Positions 3,743 through 15,419 of a stretch of DNA of 64,000 nt are shown one piece after another. The position numbers and the translations under genes were made by a program. The stretch spans positions 32,001-96,000 of the IMG/VR virus record IMGVR_UViG_3300009152_000030; one strand, written 5' to 3'. The stretch comes from a virus. How positions within the stretch are numbered: position 1 is the stretch's first letter; each line of letters starts with the position of its first letter. Under the pieces are notes generated by a model that was given only the letters and a program-made list of their open reading frames with translations, was not told where the DNA came from and did no database searches.

Positions 3743-3788
3743 ACCTCTTTTTGTTGGCTCTGAAATAGAGCGTTAATGTTTTTAACAG

Positions 3789-3863
3789 TGTGCCCGACTG
3801 GACTTGAACCAGTGACCTACGGCTTAGAAGGCCGTTGCAACTATCCAACTGTGCTACGGGCAC
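3789..3863 (-). tRNA. tRNA-Arg(UCU)
   Basis: Minus strand GTGCCCG TA GCAC AGTTGGATAG TTGC A ACGGC CT-TCT-AA GCCGT AGGTC ACTGG TTCAAGT CCAGT CGGGCAC A: full cloverleaf, anticodon TCT, CCA not encoded. Confidence 0.95.
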
Positions 3864-5891: not shown

Positions 5892-5918
5892 GACAAACCT
5901 CTATATAAGGGGGTAAAA

Positions 5919-6060
5919 GTCTTCCTGACAGGATTCGAACCCATCTATTACCATAAGGAAGTGATGCAGCCTTTGTGGCTACCAGACATGACATCTGATA
6001 GGTTAGCCTACCGACAGGCAGGTTGCAGACTGTTGACCTATTGGACTACTAGGACGAGAC
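5919..6060 (-). ncRNA. tRNA-like RNA (~140 nt) with an expanded central region
   Basis: T-arm ATGGG-TTCGAAT-CCTGT; terminal stem GTCT(CG)TCCT/AGGA-AGAC; D-like TAGTCCAATAGG; internal hairpins GGTAGG-CTAA-CCTATC and AGCC-ACAAA-GGCT; no canonical anticodon arm. Confidence 0.5.
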
Positions 6061-6630
6061 AGAGTTGCCCAGTTCCACCAGGAGATTGTTGAACTCCTCG
6101 ATGGGGCAGTCGGCGTCCTCAATCTTTGTCAGGAGGCTCTTGTGTCCCCAGAAAAGATTGATGAGGCCGTCCATGTCAGCCTTGACGTTCTTGACCGTGA
6201 AGTCAAAGTGCTTCGTCAAGGTGGGGATTGCGGCGTAGAAAGCATACGTCCCTCCAAACCGCTCCGAGTACACTTCCATTGTCGGGATGTGGTACAGGGT
6301 CTCGTTGATCTCCAGAGAGTCACGGAGGCGGATCCTATTGATCTTCGCGCTGACCCACTCCGAGACATATCCGTTTTCGGGATTGGGGAGGCCAATCGTG
6401 AAATTGACCTCGAACCCCTTGTGCGCATCATGGAACATCCCGTGCTCCACAATGTAGTACCCTTCCCCCTCAGCATTGTTGCCCCTGACGGCAGCGCTGA
6501 TCGTGGGGCCGCTGAACTCCGTGAGAGACACAGAGTAGGTGGTGTCGTACCCGAGATGGTTCATCCTCTTGGCGACCTCGGTCGCGAAAAGGATAACGGC
6601 TTCAAAGTCAAAGATCATCTGTTTTTTCAT
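6049..6630 (-). CDS. Hypothetical protein
   Basis: Likely start MKKQMIF (ATG 6630, overlapping upstream stop as ATGA); locally GC-rich codons. Confidence 0.7.
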   Translation of the reverse strand: MKKQMIFDFEAVILFATEVAKRMNHLGYDTTYSVSLTEFSGPTISAAVRGNNAEGEGYYIVEHGMFHDAHKGFEVNFTIGLPNPENGYVSEWVSAKINRIRLRDSLEINETLYHIPTMEVYSERFGGTYAFYAAIPTLTKHFDFTVKNVKADMDGLINLFWGHKSLLTKIEDADCPIEEFNNLLVELGNSVSS

Positions 6631-6788
6631 CTTGTCACCTGTTGGTGGGTGTGGGTAGTGCCTCTGTGCTTGATTGCACAGTCTTTGTGTTGAACTCTCC
6701 AAGTTCCGATGTGACGCTCAAAGTGTCCTTCTTTAGCAGGAACGGTTTTGCCACACCGATAGCAGGTTCCGGGATACTGGTTCCTCAT
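6627..6788 (-). CDS. Small zinc-finger protein
   Basis: MRNQYPGTCYRCGKTV...QHKDC: CxxC...HxxC; GGAG RBS before ATG 6788. Confidence 0.65.
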   Translation of the reverse strand: MRNQYPGTCYRCGKTVPAKEGHFERHIGTWRVQHKDCAIKHRGTTHTHQQVTR

Positions 6789-7000
6789 GAGTTCTCCGAA
6801 TTTTGGATGATAATGTCCTCTTGGAAGAACTCGGCAAAGTGTCTTGCTCCGTGGAACTTCTTGTAGGAGCACACCATGTAACCTGGCTCTTTTCTGAACC
6901 AGAACCCGCACTTCCGAATGCGCTTTTGGATCCGACGCGCTGCAGCTAAGTTAGGGGTTGTATGAAGATAGACGTGAAAGTCAAGGCTTACATGATACAT
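6785..7000 (-). CDS. Hypothetical protein
   Basis: 71-aa ORF with strong AAGGAGG RBS. Confidence 0.65.
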   Translation of the reverse strand: MYHVSLDFHVYLHTTPNLAAARRIQKRIRKCGFWFRKEPGYMVCSYKKFHGARHFAEFFQEDIIIQNSENS

Positions 7001-7020
7001 CTTGTCCTCCTTTAGGACGG

Positions 7021-7107
7021 TGGTAATTCAATCATATGGGAATCGAACCTATAACTATGTACTAGAACCGCAACTGCGGCATACATAGCGTCACCAGACT
7101 GATCAAA
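7021..7107 (-). ncRNA. tRNA-like RNA ending in CCA with a minimal D-arm and an elongated central arm
   Basis: Minus strand TTTGATCA / GTC-TGGT-GAC / GCTATGTA..CCGC-AGTT-GCGG..TACATAGT / ATAGG-TTCGATT-CCCAT / TGATTGAA TTA CCA. Confidence 0.55.
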
Positions 7108-7124
7108 GGCCCGCTGCAGCAGAC

Positions 7125-7487
7125 CACCCATGTCTTTACCTCGGCACTAGTGGCAGGGCTCCACTAGCGACAAAGCCCATGTCTATCTCGTCACTAGTAG
7201 CAGGGCTCTACTAGTAACCACCTCATGTTCATCTTCTCCATTAGTGGCAGGGGTCCACTAACAGCCAGCCCATCGCTATAACCAGGTTTGCAACCCTGAC
7301 TACCTCTAGGTTCCCAATAAGTGGCAGGCTCACCTATGGTTTTTCTAGAGGATTTGAAGCCCATGTTTATCTCGTTACTAGCGGCAGGGCTCCAACTAGT
7401 AACCAGCCTTTTTATATAGCCAGGGTTACAACCCTAACTCTCACTAGGTTCCCATAAGCGGCAGGCGCACTTATGATTGTACTAGTA
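7125..7487 (-). ncRNA. Tandem array of six pseudoknot-forming RNA repeats (four ~47-nt units, two ~85-nt units)
   Basis: Hairpins with conserved loop AGCCCUG/AGCCUGC at 7154, 7201, 7248, 7324, 7385, 7461; compensatory stem changes; G-U wobbles only on minus strand; loop complementary to downstream CA(U)GGGCU. Confidence 0.7.
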
Positions 7488-7501
7488 AACTCTCAAAGGA
7501 T

Positions 7502-7568
7502 GACGTCTTGCAGTACGAACAATAGGGTTTACATCCCCTATTATTCGCAATGTAACCTGCGTGACGCC
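7502..7568. ncRNA. Long irregular hairpin
   Basis: GGCGTC...CGAATAATAGGG-GATGTAAA-CCCTATTGTTCG...GACGTC on minus strand. Confidence 0.4.
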
Positions 7569-7577
7569 GTAAACTTG

Positions 7578-7605
7578 TGAGCATTTTAGAGACCTACTCA
7601 GGTCT
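7578..7605 (-). ncRNA. Compact H-type pseudoknot
   Basis: AGACC-TGAGTA-GGTCT-CTAAAA-TGCTCA: 5-bp stem; 6-nt loop pairs with TGCTCA after an A-rich linker. Confidence 0.5.
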
Positions 7606-7610
7606 GAGGA

Positions 7611-7853
7611 TTATACGAAGAAGCGACGGGCCGTATGCACTGCCTCGATAAGAGAATCAGAGCCAGTGTTGGCGTCGCTCTCGTACTTCTTCTCATCGAG
7701 ACGCTCATTGATGGCATCCCACGGGTCATAAGACTCATGGTTCACGTCATCCAGGCTCAGAGTCTCCTTCTGAACCTCTTCGAAACTATCAGTCAAGATC
7801 GTAGCAGCACTAAACAACATGATATACCTCTTTGCATTGGTAGACATTACCAA
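7611..7853 (-). CDS. Hypothetical acidic protein
   Basis: 80-aa ORF, co-directional with neighbours. Confidence 0.6.
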   Translation of the reverse strand: MVMSTNAKRYIMLFSAATILTDSFEEVQKETLSLDDVNHESYDPWDAINERLDEKKYESDANTGSDSLIEAVHTARRFFV

Positions 7854-7862
7854 TTCTCACCG

Positions 7863-7882
7863 AAAGAAGGGGCGATAGCCCC
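7863..7882 (-). terminator. Intrinsic terminator, copy 3
   Basis: GGGGCTATCGCCCCTTCTTT on minus strand. Confidence 0.75.
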
Positions 7883-8007
7883 TCAGGATTTGTACTGTAG
7901 CGGAGTGGGACCCATAATTATTTGGGCCTATTTTCACTCAGCTGGCCCAGGAGCCGAAACCCCCCGACGCCCGTTAGGGCGAAGGGGGGTTGAGCTGGAC
8001 CTGCGAC

Positions 8008-8430
8008 CTAGAAGGTGCCGTCGTCCGCAGTGGCCGTCTCGCGAAGCGCCGCAAGGGCCTCCGCAGCGGCATCTGCACCAGCGGATGAGGCCGCGGGAGC
8101 CGAAGCGCCAGCGGGGGAGCCAGTCTTGACGACGACGTTGGCGAGGATCTTGACGGCGAAGCCCTTGGAGCCATCCTTGCGGAGGAACTCTTCGTCTTCG
8201 GGGGTTCCGTCCACGAACACGGTGTCGCCCTTCTTGAGGATCTTCGCCATGTTCTCCGCGAGTGCGCCGAAGCACACGACGTCCCGCCACTTCACGACAG
8301 CGACGCCCTTGACCTTGCGGTTGACAGCGACGCGCATGGCGCAGATGGAAGTTCCCGACTGGCCCGTCAGGAGAATAGGGTCGGCTCCAAGGTTGCCGAC
8401 GACCTGAGTACGCTCAAAGCCCATGCTCAT
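8008..8430 (-). CDS. ssb: Single-stranded DNA-binding protein (SSB 2)
   Basis: VVGNLGADP, W.DVVCFGALAENMAKILKKGDTVFVDG, tail ending DDGTF; likely start ATG 8430 after GGAG. Confidence 0.88.
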   Translation of the reverse strand: MSMGFERTQVVGNLGADPILLTGQSGTSICAMRVAVNRKVKGVAVVKWRDVVCFGALAENMAKILKKGDTVFVDGTPEDEEFLRKDGSKGFAVKILANVVVKTGSPAGASAPAASSAGADAAAEALAALRETATADDGTF

Positions 8431-8549
8431 GGGTGCGCTCCAGTGTGGAGAGAAGGACCATCCCTCTCTCCGCACAAACAAGGGCCGTTAGGCCCTCTGG
8501 CGATCCATCTCGTTGGATCAACGGGAGCCAGGACATCTGGACTCCGCAG

Positions 8550-8569
8550 AAAGAAGGGGCGATAGCCCC
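8550..8569 (-). terminator. Intrinsic terminator, copy 4
   Basis: GGGGCTATCGCCCCTTCTTT on minus strand. Confidence 0.75.
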
Positions 8570-8668
8570 CGAGCGAAGCGAGCTCTACAAGCGAAGAACT
8601 AAGGAACAAACGGACGGCGCGAGCGAAGCGAGCGGCAGCGGAGTAATTGGACCTTTTTTGGATGAAAG

Positions 8669-8702
8669 AAAAAAATAGCCCACCCATGATGGGCAGGCTA
8701 TT
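8669..8702 (-). terminator. Intrinsic terminator of the long leftward operon
   Basis: AATAGCCTGCCCA-TCA-TGGGTGGGCTATT-TTTTT immediately after the 8705 stop. Confidence 0.8.
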
Positions 8703-8704
8703 CT

Positions 8705-8998
8705 CTAGTTATTGCCGTTCTTCTTTCTGTTTGCTTCTAGCATTTCCAGAAGACCGCGAGCCATCTTTGCATTGTGCTCATTCTCCTTTTGGGTAACCCA
8801 TTTTGGAGGAGGATCTTTGATGTCAAAGAAGATTTGAATTTCATGGCGAAGTACATAGTAACCTTTGTTGATACGTAAATCAACACAGATCACAACTTCT
8901 CCTGCTCCAACCAACGTCCCGTCCCATGCCCTAATAGTGCCGGTTGGCTTTGGTTTGCGGTTTGTTTCAATGATGTGGCCATTAAATGACTTTTTCAT
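8705..8998 (-). CDS. Hypothetical protein
   Basis: 97-aa ORF, AAGGA RBS, last gene before terminator. Confidence 0.7.
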   Translation of the reverse strand: MKKSFNGHIIETNRKPKPTGTIRAWDGTLVGAGEVVICVDLRINKGYYVLRHEIQIFFDIKDPPPKWVTQKENEHNAKMARGLLEMLEANRKKNGNN

Positions 8999-9033
8999 TG
9001 TTGCCTATTCCTTACGTGCAGTGTTATGTTCTG

Positions 9034-12000
9034 CTACTTCTTTGCAAGGTCGTTCGGGTTGATGATAATCATCGGACGATTGACCTTCTTGGCGTAGTTG
9101 ACACAGTTGGATGTGCCACTCGGAGAACCATCCCAGATTGCGACAACCGCCTCGCAGTTATCAACCATCCAGTAGTTCCGTGCGTGGAGACACTTCTCTT
9201 TGCCTGCAAGGTCGTAGCCTTTCTTATTGACAAGCACAACTTGATGAGCAAGAGCAAGCATCTTCTTGTAACGCATCTTAGCTTCGTCACCCTTGAAGTA
9301 ATCACCATGGTCGCTGCAAGGACGAGCCACGATGAACTTGAGGCCAAGCTTGTGAGCCTCACGTGCGGCATCAGTGTCAACGCCAAGAGCACCACCAGTA
9401 ACGACGATGATCTCACGAGTTGCACTGTACTTGGCAATGGCACGCTTTAATGCATCTGCGATTGCATTCTTTACAGCAACACGCAGAGGATGATTCTCGT
9501 CATAGCCGCCAATCTTTTCGGGGCGATGACCAGTGAATGCAATCCTGTAGGGCTTTGCTTCCACGGCAACAACAGGCACAGCAGGAGCAGGCTTGGCTTC
9601 AACAGCAGGAGCGTCAACCGGGACCCAATTGACATCTGCCATGTTCTTAGGCTGCCACTTGCCGTTGACCATTACAAGTTGTACAGGCTGTGCCGCAGTG
9701 TACGTGCCTTCAAGTACTTCACTGAAGATTTGAGTCTCAGACTCTTCCTCGTCACTGTCGTACTCGCTAGCATACTGCTCCAGCTCTTCAGCGCTGACTG
9801 GATTCTCAGAACCAAAGGCATCTTCAAAGTTGAAGTCTGCCATGCCTGCGCTCTCCAGCATCTTGTCGTAGTCGATATTCTCAGAGACAGAGATATCGAA
9901 GAACTCCTTCTCGGGAGGAGGCTCGGGCTTGACCGGCTCTTGACCCTTGAAGGTCAGCCAGACGAAGTTACGAGTGTAGGTCTTGCCGTTGGCACCATGA
10001 CCGTCACGCTTCTCCACTTCGCTTGCCTCAACGGTAGCACCGCTGAAGAAGTTGTTGAGAGTACCGTGGTAGCCCATCATGCCGGCAATCTGCCACTGAG
10101 TCTTGCCCTTGAAGGCACCGTTGTTCTCGAATGCCTTGCGCGTCTCGCTGGTCTTGCGGAAGACCAAGTAAGCAACTGCGGCGGCGCGATGGTCCTGGTC
10201 AGGGTTACCGCGCTGTCCACCGTATGCAAGCTGAATGCGGTTGTCGCTGAGGAGCTGCTGGATGTTGAGGCCAACAAGCGACTGAGGATCAACAGTCTTG
10301 CCATCCTTGCTCTCACGAATGAGGAAGGCGGCGCGAACGTCGGCAGCAAGAAGCTTATCCTGAGTCTTCTTCACGGCAGCATCCTCAAGGAACTTGCAGA
10401 GAACTTCTGCGTAGCCCTTGTAGTTACCGGTCGAGGCAAAGTACATCTTGCGGCTGTAACCACCGCTGGAGGTAAGCTCACCCTGCGCGTCGATGGCGTC
10501 AGAGTCGATGATCTTTGTCTTGTTGCCTTCTTCGTCATCAAGGAACTCGACCTTACCCTTGCCCATGGACAGAGTAATAGGCTTTTCCGCAGACGTACCG
10601 AGAGCGGACATCAGCTCAGAAAGCACGAACATTTCGTACTTGTACTCAGCCTTATCCTCGTAGACCTCTTCGAAGAGAGGCCAGAGATCCTCGTGACGTG
10701 CTGCGAAGGCTGCATGGATGGGCTTCTGAGCGTAAACCCGACGAAGGGTCTTGAGCTCTTCAGCGTTCATCATGTAGCGAACCTTGTCGATTTCCTCGTA
10801 ACGATGCTTCATTGCCTCAGGCACAGTCATCATGTGACCATTGTCCTGGCTGTAGCGATTGACCGCATGATACTTACGGAACATGAAGGAGCCGAAGGTC
10901 GTGAGATTGAACTCACCCTCGTATTGCTCCTGCTCATCCCGGTAGTGCTTGCTGATCAGCTCATCAAGCTCATGCGAGTGCTCTTCAAGGAACGCCTGAA
11001 GATTGGAGGTCAGGAGAGTAGCAGTCTGAGTGCTGTGACCCTCATCGATGAACGACTTGAGGTTCGAGGTCATCGTCTTCCAGTAGCGTGTGAAGCTGCG
11101 GATGATGGGATGCTCAACCTTGACAGACCGACCATCTGCCGTGACAACCGTCTGACGAAGGCTCTGGCAGATCTTAGCGGTCATCGGGATCTTGCCCTCT
11201 TCGTCCTTGAACAAGGCAGGAGCAATGATGTTCTCGCCCGTGATCTCGGAGATTTCTCCCGTGTAACGCACAGCAACAGGTGCAGTTACAAGCGAAAGAA
11301 GGCTGACACCAAGCCGCTTGCGCACAGGCTTAAGGGCCGTCATCTTGCTAGGCTTAGCATCGGGATTCTCACGCATCGCATTGCGGTCGTTGAGTACCCA
11401 GCTGACAGCAATCATCGTCATGATAGCGTCGATGTTGTGCCATGCACGCCAAGCGCCGGGGAAGTCAGTGCCGCTCTGAGCAGCATCGACCACCAGCGAG
11501 ATCTCACCTTCCATCATGCAAGCTGCAAGAAGGGCGGATGGAGTCTTGACTACCGACGGCAGAATGATCAGGTCAGCAAGCAGATAGCTGCCGAACATCT
11601 GAGCATTTGCCATTGCGCCAACGATGGGCATGAACTCGTTATCACCAGGAAGGTGAATCATGTCCCACTTCTCTTCAGCAGTCTTGTCGGCAACCGAAGG
11701 ATCTGCAGGCTGAGCCTTCTCAGCAAGGGCCGTAATGTTGTACTTGATCAAGCCAGAAGGCGAGACAGTCTCGACCGTCTTGACATCAAAGTACGACGAC
11801 AGCAGCTTGTGACCATTCGGAATGGTGTTCACAAGATCAAGCTTTTCAGGAAGCTTAGCAAGGAAGGTGTGTGCCTTCTCGTAAGTATCCTGGACCTGCT
11901 GAACGGTGAACTGGCTCAGCTTGTAGTTACGCAGGTTCATAGAACGCAGCGCAAGCAAGCCAAGCTTACCGCACAGGAAGAACGCCTTGTCGTCAGCGTC

Positions 12001-13437
12001 ACCGCCGTCCATGCTAACAAGGACAGCCTTCTGCATGATCTCCGTGCTGCCGAAGTATGCAGTAGCGTGCAGGAACATGTCGTCCTTAAGGACAACATAG
12101 ATAACCCGCACATCGACCTTAGCCGAAGTAGGCCAACGAGCCGCAGCGCCAAGGCTATCCCGATGGTTGACGGCAAGCTCCTTCTCGTTCTCACCCTTCA
12201 CATCATGGATGTTAAGAGCAGGAACGTTGAGGTTCTTCGCAGCTTCTGCCGTGATAGCAATTGCCGCAAATCCCGTCTTGGCAAGGATCTGTTCCGACTT
12301 GGCGTTGAACGCTTCCTCGATCTTTGCCTTGCGGTCAAGCTCAGCCATGATGAGAAGACGACGCTTCTTCAGGCCAGCGGTTTCGTTTGCAAAGGCACCC
12401 TGCTTCTCCTCATGGAGCCACAGGTCACGGAACATACGCCAGACAAGAGCGCGGGGATACGAGGTAAAGCCACAAGGGCCGTCCTTTGTAACCGCGTTGA
12501 TGCGAAGCTTGCTCTGCGTAACGTCTTCGCTGACACTGTTGACTAGAGTAGTCACAGTAGCAGGAATTGCGCCAGGGTGAACACCAAGGCTAAGAAGCAT
12601 CTTGGTGATCTTTGCCTTGAATGTTGAGGACGTTTCCGTTGCCTCAAGGACGTCGCCATCGAGACCCTTAAGGGCATTCTTGACGTAGTCATCCCAGTGC
12701 GAGATGTTCCAGTCAATCATCTCGTTGAGGATCGCATGGAACTTCGGGTCGTTGAGCACCTGACCAAACAGGGCGCTCAAGTTCTGGACGCCGAGAAGGA
12801 CACCAGGCTCAGACTTCATCTCACCAACGGTCGGCTGCACCATAAGCGCAACATCGGGAGAGAGATCAGGCTTGAGATCCTGCTTGCCTTCGGAGCTCAG
12901 CAGGAAGACATGGGGCGGAAGCCAAAGCTTGACCGCACCCATTGCGCCCTTATAGTACGCTTCGAGCTTAACCACACGGCGAACCTGCATGCCCTGCGTC
13001 ATGGGGCCAGGGGTGAGCTCTGCAGTGCCCATGTAGTGGACACCGTCCTGGATTGCCTTGTAGGCAGGATCCAAGTCAGCCATGTCTACAACCTTGCCAG
13101 TTGCAGATACGATGGCGCTGTAGGTGGCCGTCATCATGGAACGCGCATACTTGCGGCCCTTCTGAGCGGTCTTGCTGGTATACCCAACAGAACCCACAAG
13201 CTTTGCCTTCAGCGCCTTAGGCACCATCAGCGTCTCCATGCTGCTAACAGCAAAGAGGGCAACGTGACCGTCCGGGCATTTCTGCCCTTTCTCAACCACA
13301 GGGTGGTCGAGGAGGCTTTCAAAGCCCGGAAGATCGGAATAGGGGCTCTTAACCCCGGAATACTCGAGATGCTCTCGATAGCTACGGTACATAGTACCCT
13401 CCTTGTCAGTAACCAAAATGGTTACGTTCTGTTTCAT
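9034..13437 (-). CDS. Putative single-subunit two-barrel RNA polymerase (YonO/eukaryotic RdRP-like) fused to a C-terminal YspA/DUF1273 SLOG domain
   Basis: Ordered motifs QDGVHY (~13045), QVR...YYKG (~12950), RWPT (12127-12138), DGGDADD (11989-12009). SLOG: IAFTGHRP, TGGALGVD, RNYWMVD, WDGSPSGT. Likely start MKQNV (13437). Confidence 0.65.
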   Translation of the reverse strand: MKQNVTILVTDKEGTMYRSYREHLEYSGVKSPYSDLPGFESLLDHPVVEKGQKCPDGHVALFAVSSMETLMVPKALKAKLVGSVGYTSKTAQKGRKYARSMMTATYSAIVSATGKVVDMADLDPAYKAIQDGVHYMGTAELTPGPMTQGMQVRRVVKLEAYYKGAMGAVKLWLPPHVFLLSSEGKQDLKPDLSPDVALMVQPTVGEMKSEPGVLLGVQNLSALFGQVLNDPKFHAILNEMIDWNISHWDDYVKNALKGLDGDVLEATETSSTFKAKITKMLLSLGVHPGAIPATVTTLVNSVSEDVTQSKLRINAVTKDGPCGFTSYPRALVWRMFRDLWLHEEKQGAFANETAGLKKRRLLIMAELDRKAKIEEAFNAKSEQILAKTGFAAIAITAEAAKNLNVPALNIHDVKGENEKELAVNHRDSLGAAARWPTSAKVDVRVIYVVLKDDMFLHATAYFGSTEIMQKAVLVSMDGGDADDKAFFLCGKLGLLALRSMNLRNYKLSQFTVQQVQDTYEKAHTFLAKLPEKLDLVNTIPNGHKLLSSYFDVKTVETVSPSGLIKYNITALAEKAQPADPSVADKTAEEKWDMIHLPGDNEFMPIVGAMANAQMFGSYLLADLIILPSVVKTPSALLAACMMEGEISLVVDAAQSGTDFPGAWRAWHNIDAIMTMIAVSWVLNDRNAMRENPDAKPSKMTALKPVRKRLGVSLLSLVTAPVAVRYTGEISEITGENIIAPALFKDEEGKIPMTAKICQSLRQTVVTADGRSVKVEHPIIRSFTRYWKTMTSNLKSFIDEGHSTQTATLLTSNLQAFLEEHSHELDELISKHYRDEQEQYEGEFNLTTFGSFMFRKYHAVNRYSQDNGHMMTVPEAMKHRYEEIDKVRYMMNAEELKTLRRVYAQKPIHAAFAARHEDLWPLFEEVYEDKAEYKYEMFVLSELMSALGTSAEKPITLSMGKGKVEFLDDEEGNKTKIIDSDAIDAQGELTSSGGYSRKMYFASTGNYKGYAEVLCKFLEDAAVKKTQDKLLAADVRAAFLIRESKDGKTVDPQSLVGLNIQQLLSDNRIQLAYGGQRGNPDQDHRAAAVAYLVFRKTSETRKAFENNGAFKGKTQWQIAGMMGYHGTLNNFFSGATVEASEVEKRDGHGANGKTYTRNFVWLTFKGQEPVKPEPPPEKEFFDISVSENIDYDKMLESAGMADFNFEDAFGSENPVSAEELEQYASEYDSDEEESETQIFSEVLEGTYTAAQPVQLVMVNGKWQPKNMADVNWVPVDAPAVEAKPAPAVPVVAVEAKPYRIAFTGHRPEKIGGYDENHPLRVAVKNAIADALKRAIAKYSATREIIVVTGGALGVDTDAAREAHKLGLKFIVARPCSDHGDYFKGDEAKMRYKKMLALAHQVVLVNKKGYDLAGKEKCLHARNYWMVDNCEAVVAIWDGSPSGTSNCVNYAKKVNRPMIIINPNDLAKK

Positions 13438-13442
13438 GTTTT

Positions 13443-15419
13443 CTACCATTCGCCCATATCCATTGTAACAACAGGAAGAGTCGGAGCAACTACTGATACT
13501 GTCTCCATCTTGAAGCCAGAGTCCCAACCCTCACGAGTTGATGTATGCTTTGAGTTGCAGTCTGTGTAGTTAAGCATTGCACGTTCTTCGGCAGTCATCA
13601 TCCGATGAGGATTAGCTTTTGCAATCTCAGGATGAACCAACATAAAGCCGCACTTGGTCTTCATCCAGTCGTAACCGAAGTCGAAAAAGAGCTTTATCGC
13701 CAGATCTAGTCCGGCTAATTGCTTCCTAGACGAACCCTTCTTGTTGTCCGATACATCCGTCTGCACCATGGACAAACGAAGATTCATGTCGATTTTATCG
13801 AACATGTGAACCTGAGCTCGCAACTCAGAGTTTGCCATTGGTAGTTTTGTCTTCAGCGAGTAGACAGCACGCGAGGCTTTGCTTTCTTGAAGCTCTGCAT
13901 GGTACCGAGCCTTGAATTCCGGGAAAGACAGACCAGCAAGGTGCGGAAGCATCCCATATTCTGTTGTTTCCCACTTTTGACGATACTCGTCTTCGAAGTA
14001 CCCCCAATCCAAGTCCGGACGGTTGCAGTCAGTCCAAAGGGTACCACTCTGCTCATTCGCAAGATTATGCAAGTCATAAGCATACATACCATTACATTCA
14101 CTAGCTTTGAAAAGCTGCAGATACCGTAGCATATGATAATATGCTTGGCTCGTGCTGTCCACATTGGTCAGATAGAACCTTTGGTACCTTTTGTTCTGAG
14201 GTACAGCCTGTTCTACAAAGCCAGTTGCGGTTACCACAACACGATTAACGAGTTCGACTCTAAATACACCCTTGTCGCACAGGTATGTATTCCGAACTGC
14301 TCTTCCACAGGCAAGGTTTTGAATGCAAGTCTTACCAGTTTTTGACCAAGTAAGAACTTCCTCTCTTTTGCCAAAGTGAGCAATCTCGCCACTTTCGTAC
14401 ACGTCAGTGGTTTTTGCAAACTCTGTAATGCGTTCGATTTCCGATACCCATTCGTTATAGGTCATCTTCCGCATCTTGTACCAGGACGTAAGGATCATTC
14501 TGATCCACTTCTCTTCAGGGCCATTGGGGTTGAGTTTGGCCTCTCCAAACACCTGCTTGGCAAGTTGCTCTTCTTGGCCATCCCAGCGGTTTTCATTGCC
14601 AAAGCCCCAGTCAGAGACACCACCGCCAGCAGTCAGGACAAAGCCAAACGAGAACTTATTCCCGTTGCCATCGGTGCCCGTCTTGGCATCTACTGTTTTA
14701 TCAACAATATAGCCGTGGTATTGTCCAGACTTCATCTGCTGTTGATAGGTGCCACCACCAACGCAGAAGTGCCCCTTGTAGCGTGAATTGATGCTCTTGC
14801 ATTCATCCCACGCCTGCTGGGGATCAACCCAGCGGAAGTAATACGTCTCCTTGTTGAAGAGAGCCGTTACTTCACAGGTCTTGAGGGATGCCTCGCCGAT
14901 GACCGCGCCCAGGAACTTGACAGACAAGCTATTCACAAGCTCAACTGTGCTAGTGTACCGATTGCGAACAACGTGCCATTCGGCAGCTGACCATGTTTCA
15001 ATACAATTCTTCTTCTTGGCCAGCTTGGCAATGTCCTGGAAGAAGGTCTCCCAGGTAGGCTCATGAGTAACCTCCTTGAACCAGGCCATCATTTCCTTAT
15101 TGGCAAGGAGGATACTGGCAAACTTGTTGAATGCCGCAACATTCATGACCTTTACCTTGATCACCTTGGTCCGGCCCGTCGGCGGCGACCACTTAACCTG
15201 ACGCTCAGAGCCAAAGCACCGAATGCGGTACATGTCAACTCCCTGCTCCTTTAGAGCAATGATGCGCTTACGCACACTCATCAGGTTTGACAGCGAGAAC
15301 CCAGGCATTTCAGGCTGGATCTCATTGGCAATATATTGCCGCTGTTCGAGACGCATTTGCTTGGCCTTCATAAGGGCCTCCTTCTGTTCGGTGGTCATGT
15401 TTTTGGTCATCTTACTCAT
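13443..15419 (-). CDS. Hypothetical protein with divergent PcfJ-like domain; paralog of 21285-23444
   Basis: WDECKSINSRYKGHFCVGGG...HGY...FGFVLT..GGVSDWGFGNENR shared with the 21285-23444 protein. Confidence 0.6.
   Translation of the reverse strand: MSKMTKNMTTEQKEALMKAKQMRLEQRQYIANEIQPEMPGFSLSNLMSVRKRIIALKEQGVDMYRIRCFGSERQVKWSPPTGRTKVIKVKVMNVAAFNKFASILLANKEMMAWFKEVTHEPTWETFFQDIAKLAKKKNCIETWSAAEWHVVRNRYTSTVELVNSLSVKFLGAVIGEASLKTCEVTALFNKETYYFRWVDPQQAWDECKSINSRYKGHFCVGGGTYQQQMKSGQYHGYIVDKTVDAKTGTDGNGNKFSFGFVLTAGGGVSDWGFGNENRWDGQEEQLAKQVFGEAKLNPNGPEEKWIRMILTSWYKMRKMTYNEWVSEIERITEFAKTTDVYESGEIAHFGKREEVLTWSKTGKTCIQNLACGRAVRNTYLCDKGVFRVELVNRVVVTATGFVEQAVPQNKRYQRFYLTNVDSTSQAYYHMLRYLQLFKASECNGMYAYDLHNLANEQSGTLWTDCNRPDLDWGYFEDEYRQKWETTEYGMLPHLAGLSFPEFKARYHAELQESKASRAVYSLKTKLPMANSELRAQVHMFDKIDMNLRLSMVQTDVSDNKKGSSRKQLAGLDLAIKLFFDFGYDWMKTKCGFMLVHPEIAKANPHRMMTAEERAMLNYTDCNSKHTSTREGWDSGFKMETVSVVAPTLPVVTMDMGEW

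Follow-up and report, generated by a model that had tools for sequence, protein, structure and literature searches.

What is encoded in a 610-nt gap between two small genes of an uncultured lake phage? We analyzed a window of 64,000 nucleotides, corresponding to bases 32001-96000 of a single 174,117-bp virus record with 39.7% G+C (IMG/VR IMGVR_UViG_3300009152_000030). Large ORFs from about 1 to 23.5 kb of this window run on the minus strand and include two SSBs, a phosphoesterase and a 1497-aa protein, whereas the long plus-strand ORFs start at 23.8 kb. The gap (7610-7001) lies within this run of minus-strand non-structural genes, between a gene for a 69-aa acidic protein (7820-7611) and a 71-aa ORF (7000-6785), both on the minus strand. 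An initial annotation, made from the sequence alone, had described six tandem covarying RNA pseudoknots at this locus and had likened them to type III antitoxin RNAs. We found that the described array is present as reported, and that it forms the middle of an uncatalogued structured RNA of about 580 nt. The interpretation offered for it is supported only in part: we confirm a minus-strand RNA made of tandem, covarying H-type pseudoknots that belongs to no named family, but find no support for membership among the type III antitoxins or for a link to a nearby polymerase.

A strand-specific array of covarying pseudoknots

We first examined the minus strand of 7490-7125, which holds six units in the order long-short-long-short-short-short. 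Each unit is a hairpin with a 7-nt loop that pairs with a tail located 8-14 nt (short units) or about 45 nt (long units) downstream. Long unit 1 (7490-7404) consists of an outer stem, an internal loop (UACAA/GAAC), an inner stem, the loop CGCCUGC, an extra hairpin, an A-rich linker and the tail AGGC (AGGCU when extended by one nucleotide). It is followed by short unit 1 (7404-7358; loop AGCCCUG, tail CAUGGGCU), long unit 2 (7353-7266; loop AGCCUGC, tail UGGGCU), short unit 2 (7267-7220; loop ACCCCUG, tail CAUGAGGU), short unit 3 (7220-7174; loop AGCCCUG, tail CAUGGGCU) and short unit 4 (7173-7125; loop AGCCCUG, tail CAUGGGUG). The short units contain a 10-11 bp stem and a purine-rich linker (for example GAGAUAAA), whereas the long units split the stem into an outer and an inner helix around an internal loop, with an A-rich strand opposite GAAC, and insert a small hairpin into the linker. 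Loop positions 2-5 pair with a tail that follows the conserved linker (RAGAURRA-CAU), and the modules abut with spacers of 0-2 nt, apart from one 7-nt gap. The stems, loops and tails given in the initial annotation are all present, with one small correction: the ACCCCUG/CAUGAGGU unit carries a C-A mismatch, whereas its orthologues carry the perfect CAUGGGGU (GGGGU). Pairing of each loop with the preceding tail was rejected by inspection, as the downstream tail fits better for the variant loops. TRF reports a 47-nt period for only 2.6 copies, because the units have diverged. A covariance model recovers the four short units and no convincing hit elsewhere in the 174-kb genome, the only other hit having E=0.035. 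A coding reading was also rejected, as the only ORF in the gap (7194-7364, 56 aa) starts at the tail AUG of a unit and cannot be retained by relatives with a different unit order.

We next asked whether the fold exceeds chance, and on which strand. As RNA, the 610-nt intergenic region folds at -232 kcal/mol on the minus strand (z -7.8; 0 of 20 shuffles as good) and at -173 kcal/mol on the plus strand (z -0.6). Each of the six units is more stable on the minus strand, for example at -28.8 against -17.3 kcal/mol for long unit 1. About 34 of about 259 paired cells in the short-unit alignment are G-U, which would be A-C mismatches on the other strand. These findings fix the strand and exclude a duplex-DNA palindrome. 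The stems are inverted repeats rich in the palindrome CTAG, and iterons of an origin, binding sites for a dimeric DNA-binding protein or hairpin promoters for a phage RNA polymerase could thus be envisaged. We consider such a DNA-level element very unlikely, however, because the structure is strand-specific, because stem sequences change freely provided that pairing is kept, and because the loop-tail covariation outlined below has no meaning for duplex DNA.

Related contigs were collected by searches with the neighboring SSB protein, with DNA patterns taken from the element and with the acidic protein. They comprise the IMG/VR contigs L001/L010, L003, L004/L012 and L002/L006, the metagenome contigs L017, L031, L033, L034, L035 and L039, and the assemblies L172-L177 (L numbers are our labels for related loci). 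Those with Ga numbers appear to come from freshwater or estuarine metagenomes, as inferred from sample identifiers alone. A strict one-unit DNA pattern in viral contigs returned only known relatives, and a two-unit pattern returned six extra loci, all of which were rejected by the covariance model. A blastn search of 6000-9000 against 50,697 deposited phage genomes gave no match. The acidic protein has only 8 clusters among 5.8 billion proteins, and the clade is thus small. Homologous arrays are found on at least 8 other phage contigs, but module content differs between relatives, with 0-5 short and 1-2 long units. The window has two long and four short units, L001 two long units (one with a ~110-nt insertion in the linker hairpin) and three short units, L034 two long and three short, L003 one long and two short, L004 one long and four short, L174 one long and two short, L176 one long and at least one short, and L031 one long and four short, with traces of a further array upstream. 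L017 and L002 each have one long-type unit only and no short units. In each genome that could be searched whole there is a single array locus.

Compensatory changes are found both in the stems and in the loop-tail helix. Our short-unit alignment holds 20 units from 6 contigs, 19 of them distinct, in which 90.9% of cells form standard pairs in the proposed structure, against 27-57% when the 3' partners are slid by 1-3 columns. Seven pairs change on both sides, and none of 500 shuffles reaches the observed covariation score. The units are related by descent and these changes are not independent events, but the slid-partner controls keep that relatedness. The loop-tail helix is 91.6% paired: loop position 2 with its partner is GC:9, CG:6, GU:1, UG:1, loop position 5 is CG:18, UA:1, and the observed loop/tail combinations are AGCCC/GGGCU, ACCCC/GGGGU, GCCUC/GGGGU, UCCCU/AGGGU and AUCCC/GGGGC. 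Loops match their own tails better than shuffled tails, with a mean of 4.68 of 5 against 4.17 ± 0.13, the observed value being reached in 0 of 20,000 shuffles. In the long units, 95.7% of cells pair and five stem pairs change on both sides. Within that alignment the loop-tail helix is consistent but shows no two-sided change; one is supplied by L176, which has loop GUCUA with tail UAGAC where others have GCCUA/UAGGC. L002 and L017 extend this helix to GCCUAC with GUAGGC or GUAGGU. Unpaired linker positions are conserved as well.

The array is part of a longer RNA with a tRNA-like end

We then inspected the sequences that flank the array, which the initial annotation had treated in isolation. 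The upstream acidic protein, or a variant of it, precedes the RNA in all relatives examined (in the same position in L001, L002, L004 and L034), and has no Pfam, PHROG or PADLOC hit. Just after its stop codon lies the hairpin AGACCU-GAGU-AGGUCU (7605-7590), which has no U-tract and is also present in L004, L034 and L176. It is followed by H0 (7568-7502), a three-stem hairpin whose apical loop (AUGUAA) pairs with an upstream strand (UUACAU) to form a pseudoknot at the 5' end of the RNA. In an alignment of 7 contigs, 95% of H0 cells are paired, against 28-45% when slid, and 10 pairs change on both sides; the 6-bp pseudoknot helix is 100% paired, with UA:4/CG:3 at one pair.

On the 3' side, the last tail of the array runs into the hairpin GGUCUGC-UGCA-GCGGGCC (7125-7108), whose loop is conserved and whose stem differs in L001 and L002, as judged by reading the variants. 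This hairpin abuts a tRNA-like cloverleaf (7107-7027; 7107-7021 with the 3' UUACCA included). The cloverleaf has an 8-bp acceptor-like stem, a GUC-UGGU-GAC arm, a variable middle arm and a 6-bp T stem with loop UUCGAUU. In an alignment of 9 contigs, the acceptor pairs covary, the stem being present in three versions, and the T arm is invariant. The middle arm varies from a long hairpin, capped by a 4- or 5-nt loop, to almost nothing and never carries a 7-nt anticodon loop. The element does not have the cloverleaf expected of a tRNA, and it is called neither by ARAGORN, in the window or in 10 related loci, nor by Rfam RF00005. It does share the 8-bp acceptor stem and the D arm with a 4-nt loop with tRNA-Sec, and a search pattern drawn from it otherwise hit bacterial genes that look like selenocysteine tRNAs, with a UCA anticodon loop and a long variable arm. 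This is a resemblance only. A second tRNA-like region (5895-6075) folds no better than shuffles (z -0.16). Behind the element, the hairpin GUCCU-AAAGG-AGGAC (7018-6998) holds the Shine-Dalgarno sequence of the 71-aa ORF, and the same motif follows the tRNA-like element in L003, L017 and L035. The gene after the element differs among relatives, whereas the ribosome-binding site follows within 4-20 nt.

Comparison with known RNAs

We compared the RNA to families for which structural models have been reported. Within the window, Rfam 15 at gathering score returned nothing except the true tRNA-Arg at 3788-3863, and no family, including GOLLD, ROOL, riboswitch pseudoknots and YrlA, matches at E<=10 in 6700-7900 or in L017, L031 and L035. 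A match to a named family had been set beforehand as an outcome that would count against the initial annotation. CRISPR arrays and RNA anti-CRISPR repeat units have identical repeats separated by unrelated spacers; here the hairpins differ between units, and the stretches between them are conserved and pair with the loops.

The initial annotation had pointed to type III antitoxin RNAs (ToxI, AbiQ, CptI) and to the pseudo-ToxI repeats by which phage phiTE escapes ToxIN. Several features are indeed shared with this group, which also includes AntiQ and TenpI. The unit size (46-49 nt) is near that of type III antitoxin repeats (36 nt in ToxI; PMC3475682), the units are tandem and lie in a phage intergenic region, copy number differs between related phages, and the A-rich linker could hold a cleavage site. 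Each unit also forms a pseudoknot, although its topology (11-bp stem, 5-bp second helix) is not shown to equal that of ToxI. However, ToxI and pseudo-ToxI repeats differ at single positions, and those of phiTE expand by slippage (PMC3475682), whereas the units described here have a mean column identity of 74% and come in at least four recurring types plus a long form. Every short unit is closer to a unit in another phage (distance 0.00-0.26) than to any unit in its own genome (0.15-0.45). The modules are therefore old paralogues, kept one by one and reassorted between related phages, and not repeats homogenized or recently expanded within a genome. A search for the ToxN/AbiQ family (PF13958) found nothing in the whole 174-kb genome at E<=1, the flanking small proteins have no PADLOC, Pfam or PHROG hit, and no downstream partner gene is conserved. 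A two-unit exact pattern gave at least 120 matches in prokaryote contigs, and the covariance model rejected all 80 loci that were inspected, which is weak evidence given this partial coverage. In addition, the array is embedded in a larger RNA with a tRNA-like end, which a decoy does not need. We thus regard a decoy of the pseudo-ToxI kind, in which the modules would mimic a host type III antitoxin and soak up its endoribonuclease toxin, as very unlikely.

The RNA had alternatively been proposed as a template for a nearby RdRP-like enzyme. The protein in question, the 1497-aa product of 9034-13527, matches only with a C-terminal SLOG/DprA-like domain in Pfam and PHROGs, and a PDB sequence search returned only weak hits (E about 0.5); a PDB sequence search with a 193-aa protein also returned nothing informative. 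Its polymerase nature is therefore unproven here. Only proximity (about 1.5 kb) and the shared strand speak for a template or primer role, while an SSB gene, terminator-like hairpins and two further genes lie in between, and we consider this reading very unlikely.

Other RNAs offer architectural parallels. As in tmRNA with its pseudoknots PK2-PK4, several H-type pseudoknots in series occur here in the same RNA as a tRNA-like domain that lacks an anticodon loop and has a short D-like element (UCUGG...GAC). In tmRNA, the domain is formed by the two RNA ends and encloses the pseudoknots and a tag reading frame, whereas here it is contiguous, lies 3' of the array, and comes with no tag reading frame; neither ARAGORN, in the window and 10 related loci, nor the Rfam tmRNA models match. 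The nearest architectural analogue is found in the 3' UTRs of tobamoviruses and tymoviruses (TMV, TYMV), where stacked pseudoknots are followed by a tRNA-like module that RNase P can cut in vitro. Those elements are the 3' ends of RNA genomes in eukaryotic hosts, while the present one is an internal segment of a dsDNA phage operon, and the resemblance is analogy, not homology. Multivalent sponge RNAs of the CsrB/RsmZ type likewise carry many copies of one small structured binding motif, with copy number varying between lineages, but their motifs are simple GGA hairpins with a defined partner, CsrA; here the motif is a pseudoknot and no candidate partner was identified. The P1/P7 C4 RNA and MALAT1-mascRNA have a tRNA-like fold directly 3' of a functional non-coding RNA and ends set by RNase P, whereas processing of the present RNA is inferred. 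GOLLD and ROOL are phage-borne RNAs of several hundred nucleotides found next to tRNAs, rich in pseudoknots, with variable modular regions, from lake metagenomes and without an assigned function. Their covariance models do not match, and our RNA is built from repeated paralogous modules rather than from a single ornate fold. Phage-borne ornate RNAs of this sort are reported to form RNA-only assemblies (bioRxiv 10.1101/2024.12.08.627333). The 0-2 nt spacers between a tail and the next stem would allow continuous stacking of our modules into a rod or multimeric assembly, and the conserved linker nucleotides might alternatively reflect small-molecule aptamers. Module number is not fixed, however, which is awkward for a defined assembly, and the array has neither the expression platform nor the constant gene association that a riboswitch would need. 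An architectural or ligand-binding role is therefore possible but unlikely.

Inferred processing and possible roles

Our analysis establishes the fold, its strand, its modular make-up and its conservation, and shows that 7605-7021 of the minus strand encodes one multi-domain structured RNA. Transcription, processing and function, in contrast, are inferred from sequence alone. No sigma-70-like promoter and no intrinsic terminator lie on this strand between 7850 and 6930, and we infer that the RNA is transcribed together with the upstream acidic-protein gene. Host RNase P would then cut at the 5' edge of the tRNA-like element and a 3' tRNA-end nuclease behind it, releasing a stable pseudoknot-array RNA that ends in the UGCA hairpin with a 1-2 nt overhang and giving the downstream mRNA a new 5' end. 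RNase P cuts tRNA-like structures, pre-tmRNA and the phage P1/P7 C4 RNA precursor (PMC11143913). In L031 an array sits between two tRNA-like elements, with another pseudoknot tail before the first, which fits punctuation by such elements. A conceptual problem with this model is that the acceptor-like stem (8 bp) and the T stem (6 bp) stack to 14 bp and not to the 12 bp of a normal RNase P substrate, and that a 3' CCA is present only in the window's copy.

In our preferred but tentative view, the released array may act in trans as a multivalent platform, either sponge or scaffold, presenting 3-7 copies of one surface made of the stem core CUAG, the purine linker lying in its groove and the ACAU junction. 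The broad reading of the initial annotation, a multi-unit decoy or sponge, thus remains possible. The only linked gene encodes an acidic protein, which is an unlikely RNA binder. Sponge RNAs usually show recent repeat turnover, whereas the modules described here are old and individually conserved, which fits a fixed architecture as well as a sponge. Moreover, multivalency alone does not separate trans from cis roles.

The main rival, which we consider less likely, is a purely cis-acting element. In this view the tRNA-like element, and perhaps the long units, whose stem-bubble-stem form resembles T7 RNase III sites, would be processing sites that cut the polycistronic early transcript. The pseudoknot row and terminal hairpin would then protect the upstream mRNA (SSB plus acidic protein) from 3'-5' exonucleases, or shield the downstream mRNA from 5'-end-dependent decay. 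The location between co-oriented genes without promoter or terminator, the position of the tRNA-like element just before the ribosome-binding site of whatever gene follows, and the stable hairpin directly preceding it are in line with such a role, and flavivirus 3' UTRs contain duplicated, copy-variable nuclease-resistant pseudoknots. However, one hairpin is enough to stall bacterial 3' exonucleases, six covarying pseudoknots with conserved unpaired linkers are far more than that job needs, and simple H-type pseudoknots are not known to block bacterial nucleases specifically. L003 and L017 have an intrinsic-terminator-like hairpin between the acidic gene and the RNA, followed by a repeated upstream motif, which hints at a separate transcription unit. 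A more far-reaching and rather doubtful possibility is that the RNA represents a new class of phage non-coding RNA, released from an operon transcript by cleavage at a built-in tRNA mimic and acting as a multivalent decoy that neutralizes a host RNA-binding defense or RNA-decay factor. The different module types would then be tuned to different variants of the target.

Few phage non-coding RNAs have a known role, and literature searches found no description of such an RNA; none that we could find in Rfam or the literature combines paralogous pseudoknot modules with a tRNA-like terminus in a dsDNA phage. The motif types themselves are known, but their arrangement has not been described for dsDNA phages, and the fold has unusually clear comparative support for such a small family, which is found in a narrow clade of lake phages. 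The tRNA mimic, with tRNA-Sec-like proportions and no anticodon arm, adds to the growing list of bacterial and phage tRNA mimics. If it proves to be a processing signal, it would show tRNA-style punctuation of phage operons, and if the modules bind a host factor, the RNA would be a new RNA-based counter-measure.

Variation in the tRNA-like element and its neighborhood

The tRNA-like element at 7021-7107 on the minus strand of the window has proportions resembling those of tRNA-Sec, with an 8-bp acceptor stem and a GUC-UGGU-GAC arm, but it has no anticodon loop. The window's copy alone ends in UUACCA. The third pair of its acceptor-like stem is U-G and the fourth is G-U, but other relatives lack these pairs. 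The search pattern also picked up 22 genes on soil and sediment contigs (among metagenome contigs L013-L040) that look like tRNA-Sec, with a UCA anticodon loop and a long variable arm, and these are unrelated to the phage. On the minus strand of the related metagenome contig L031 (locus 1174-1366), one copy of the tRNA-like element carries an insertion of about 110 nt in place of the middle arm. This insertion is closed by a 10-bp helix and contains a nested T-arm-like hairpin (AAGGG-UUCAAUC-CCCUU). In the same contig, a pseudoknot array lies between two tRNA-like elements.

A second, different tRNA-like element is found at about 5915-6060 on the minus strand of the window, and also at 5900-6000 in the related IMG/VR contig L002 and in the IMG/VR contig L004. 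It has a GGUUCGAAUCC T arm closed by the stem ACUUCCU/AGGAAG and follows another intergenic block, but its overall fold is no better than that of shuffled sequences (z -0.16). A 71-aa ORF with a strong ribosome-binding site (6785-7000, minus strand) sits between the tRNA-like element at 7021-7107 and the zinc-ribbon-like gene (MRNQYPGTCYRCGK...). In L002 and a further IMG/VR relative, L001, the zinc-ribbon gene follows the element directly.

Modules and insertions in the pseudoknot arrays

We compared the arrays of the relatives with that of the window. In one long unit of L001 (5140-5255) and of the assembly L174 (3000-3110), the small linker hairpin is replaced by a structured insertion of about 110 nt; that position therefore tolerates large additions. 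In several relatives (the IMG/VR contig L003 at 9220-9290, L004, L031, L174, and the assembly L176), the last pseudoknot is followed by a unit-like stem capped with a UUCG tetraloop (GUUACUAG-UUCG-CUAGUAAC), and a further conserved module follows before the tRNA-like element. The window lacks both. Several short-read assemblies, including L176 and the assemblies L175 and L177 as well as other short contigs, end within or just before the array, and the repeats thus seem to break assemblies. The family may therefore be under-sampled.

Linker plus tail in the window (7125-7404, minus strand) resembles a ribosome-binding site, with GAGG or GGAG located 7-9 nt before the AUG of CAUGGG, and a 56-aa ORF (7194-7364) starts at one such AUG. 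This is probably a by-product of the purine-rich linker, and relatives with a different unit order cannot retain the ORF.

Terminator-like hairpins and a putative promoter motif

Identical GGGGGCUAUCGCCCCU hairpins followed by U-rich tracts, as found at 8555-8570 on the minus strand of the window, lie ahead of early genes, including both SSB genes, and a sequence scan classes them as terminator-like. In L003 the motif CCUCCUUCGUCGG (about 8615-8650 and 8905-8935) recurs upstream of the acidic-protein gene and again upstream of the RNA, after a terminator-like hairpin, with equivalents in the metagenome contig L017. It may be a phage promoter that gives the RNA its own transcription unit in these relatives.
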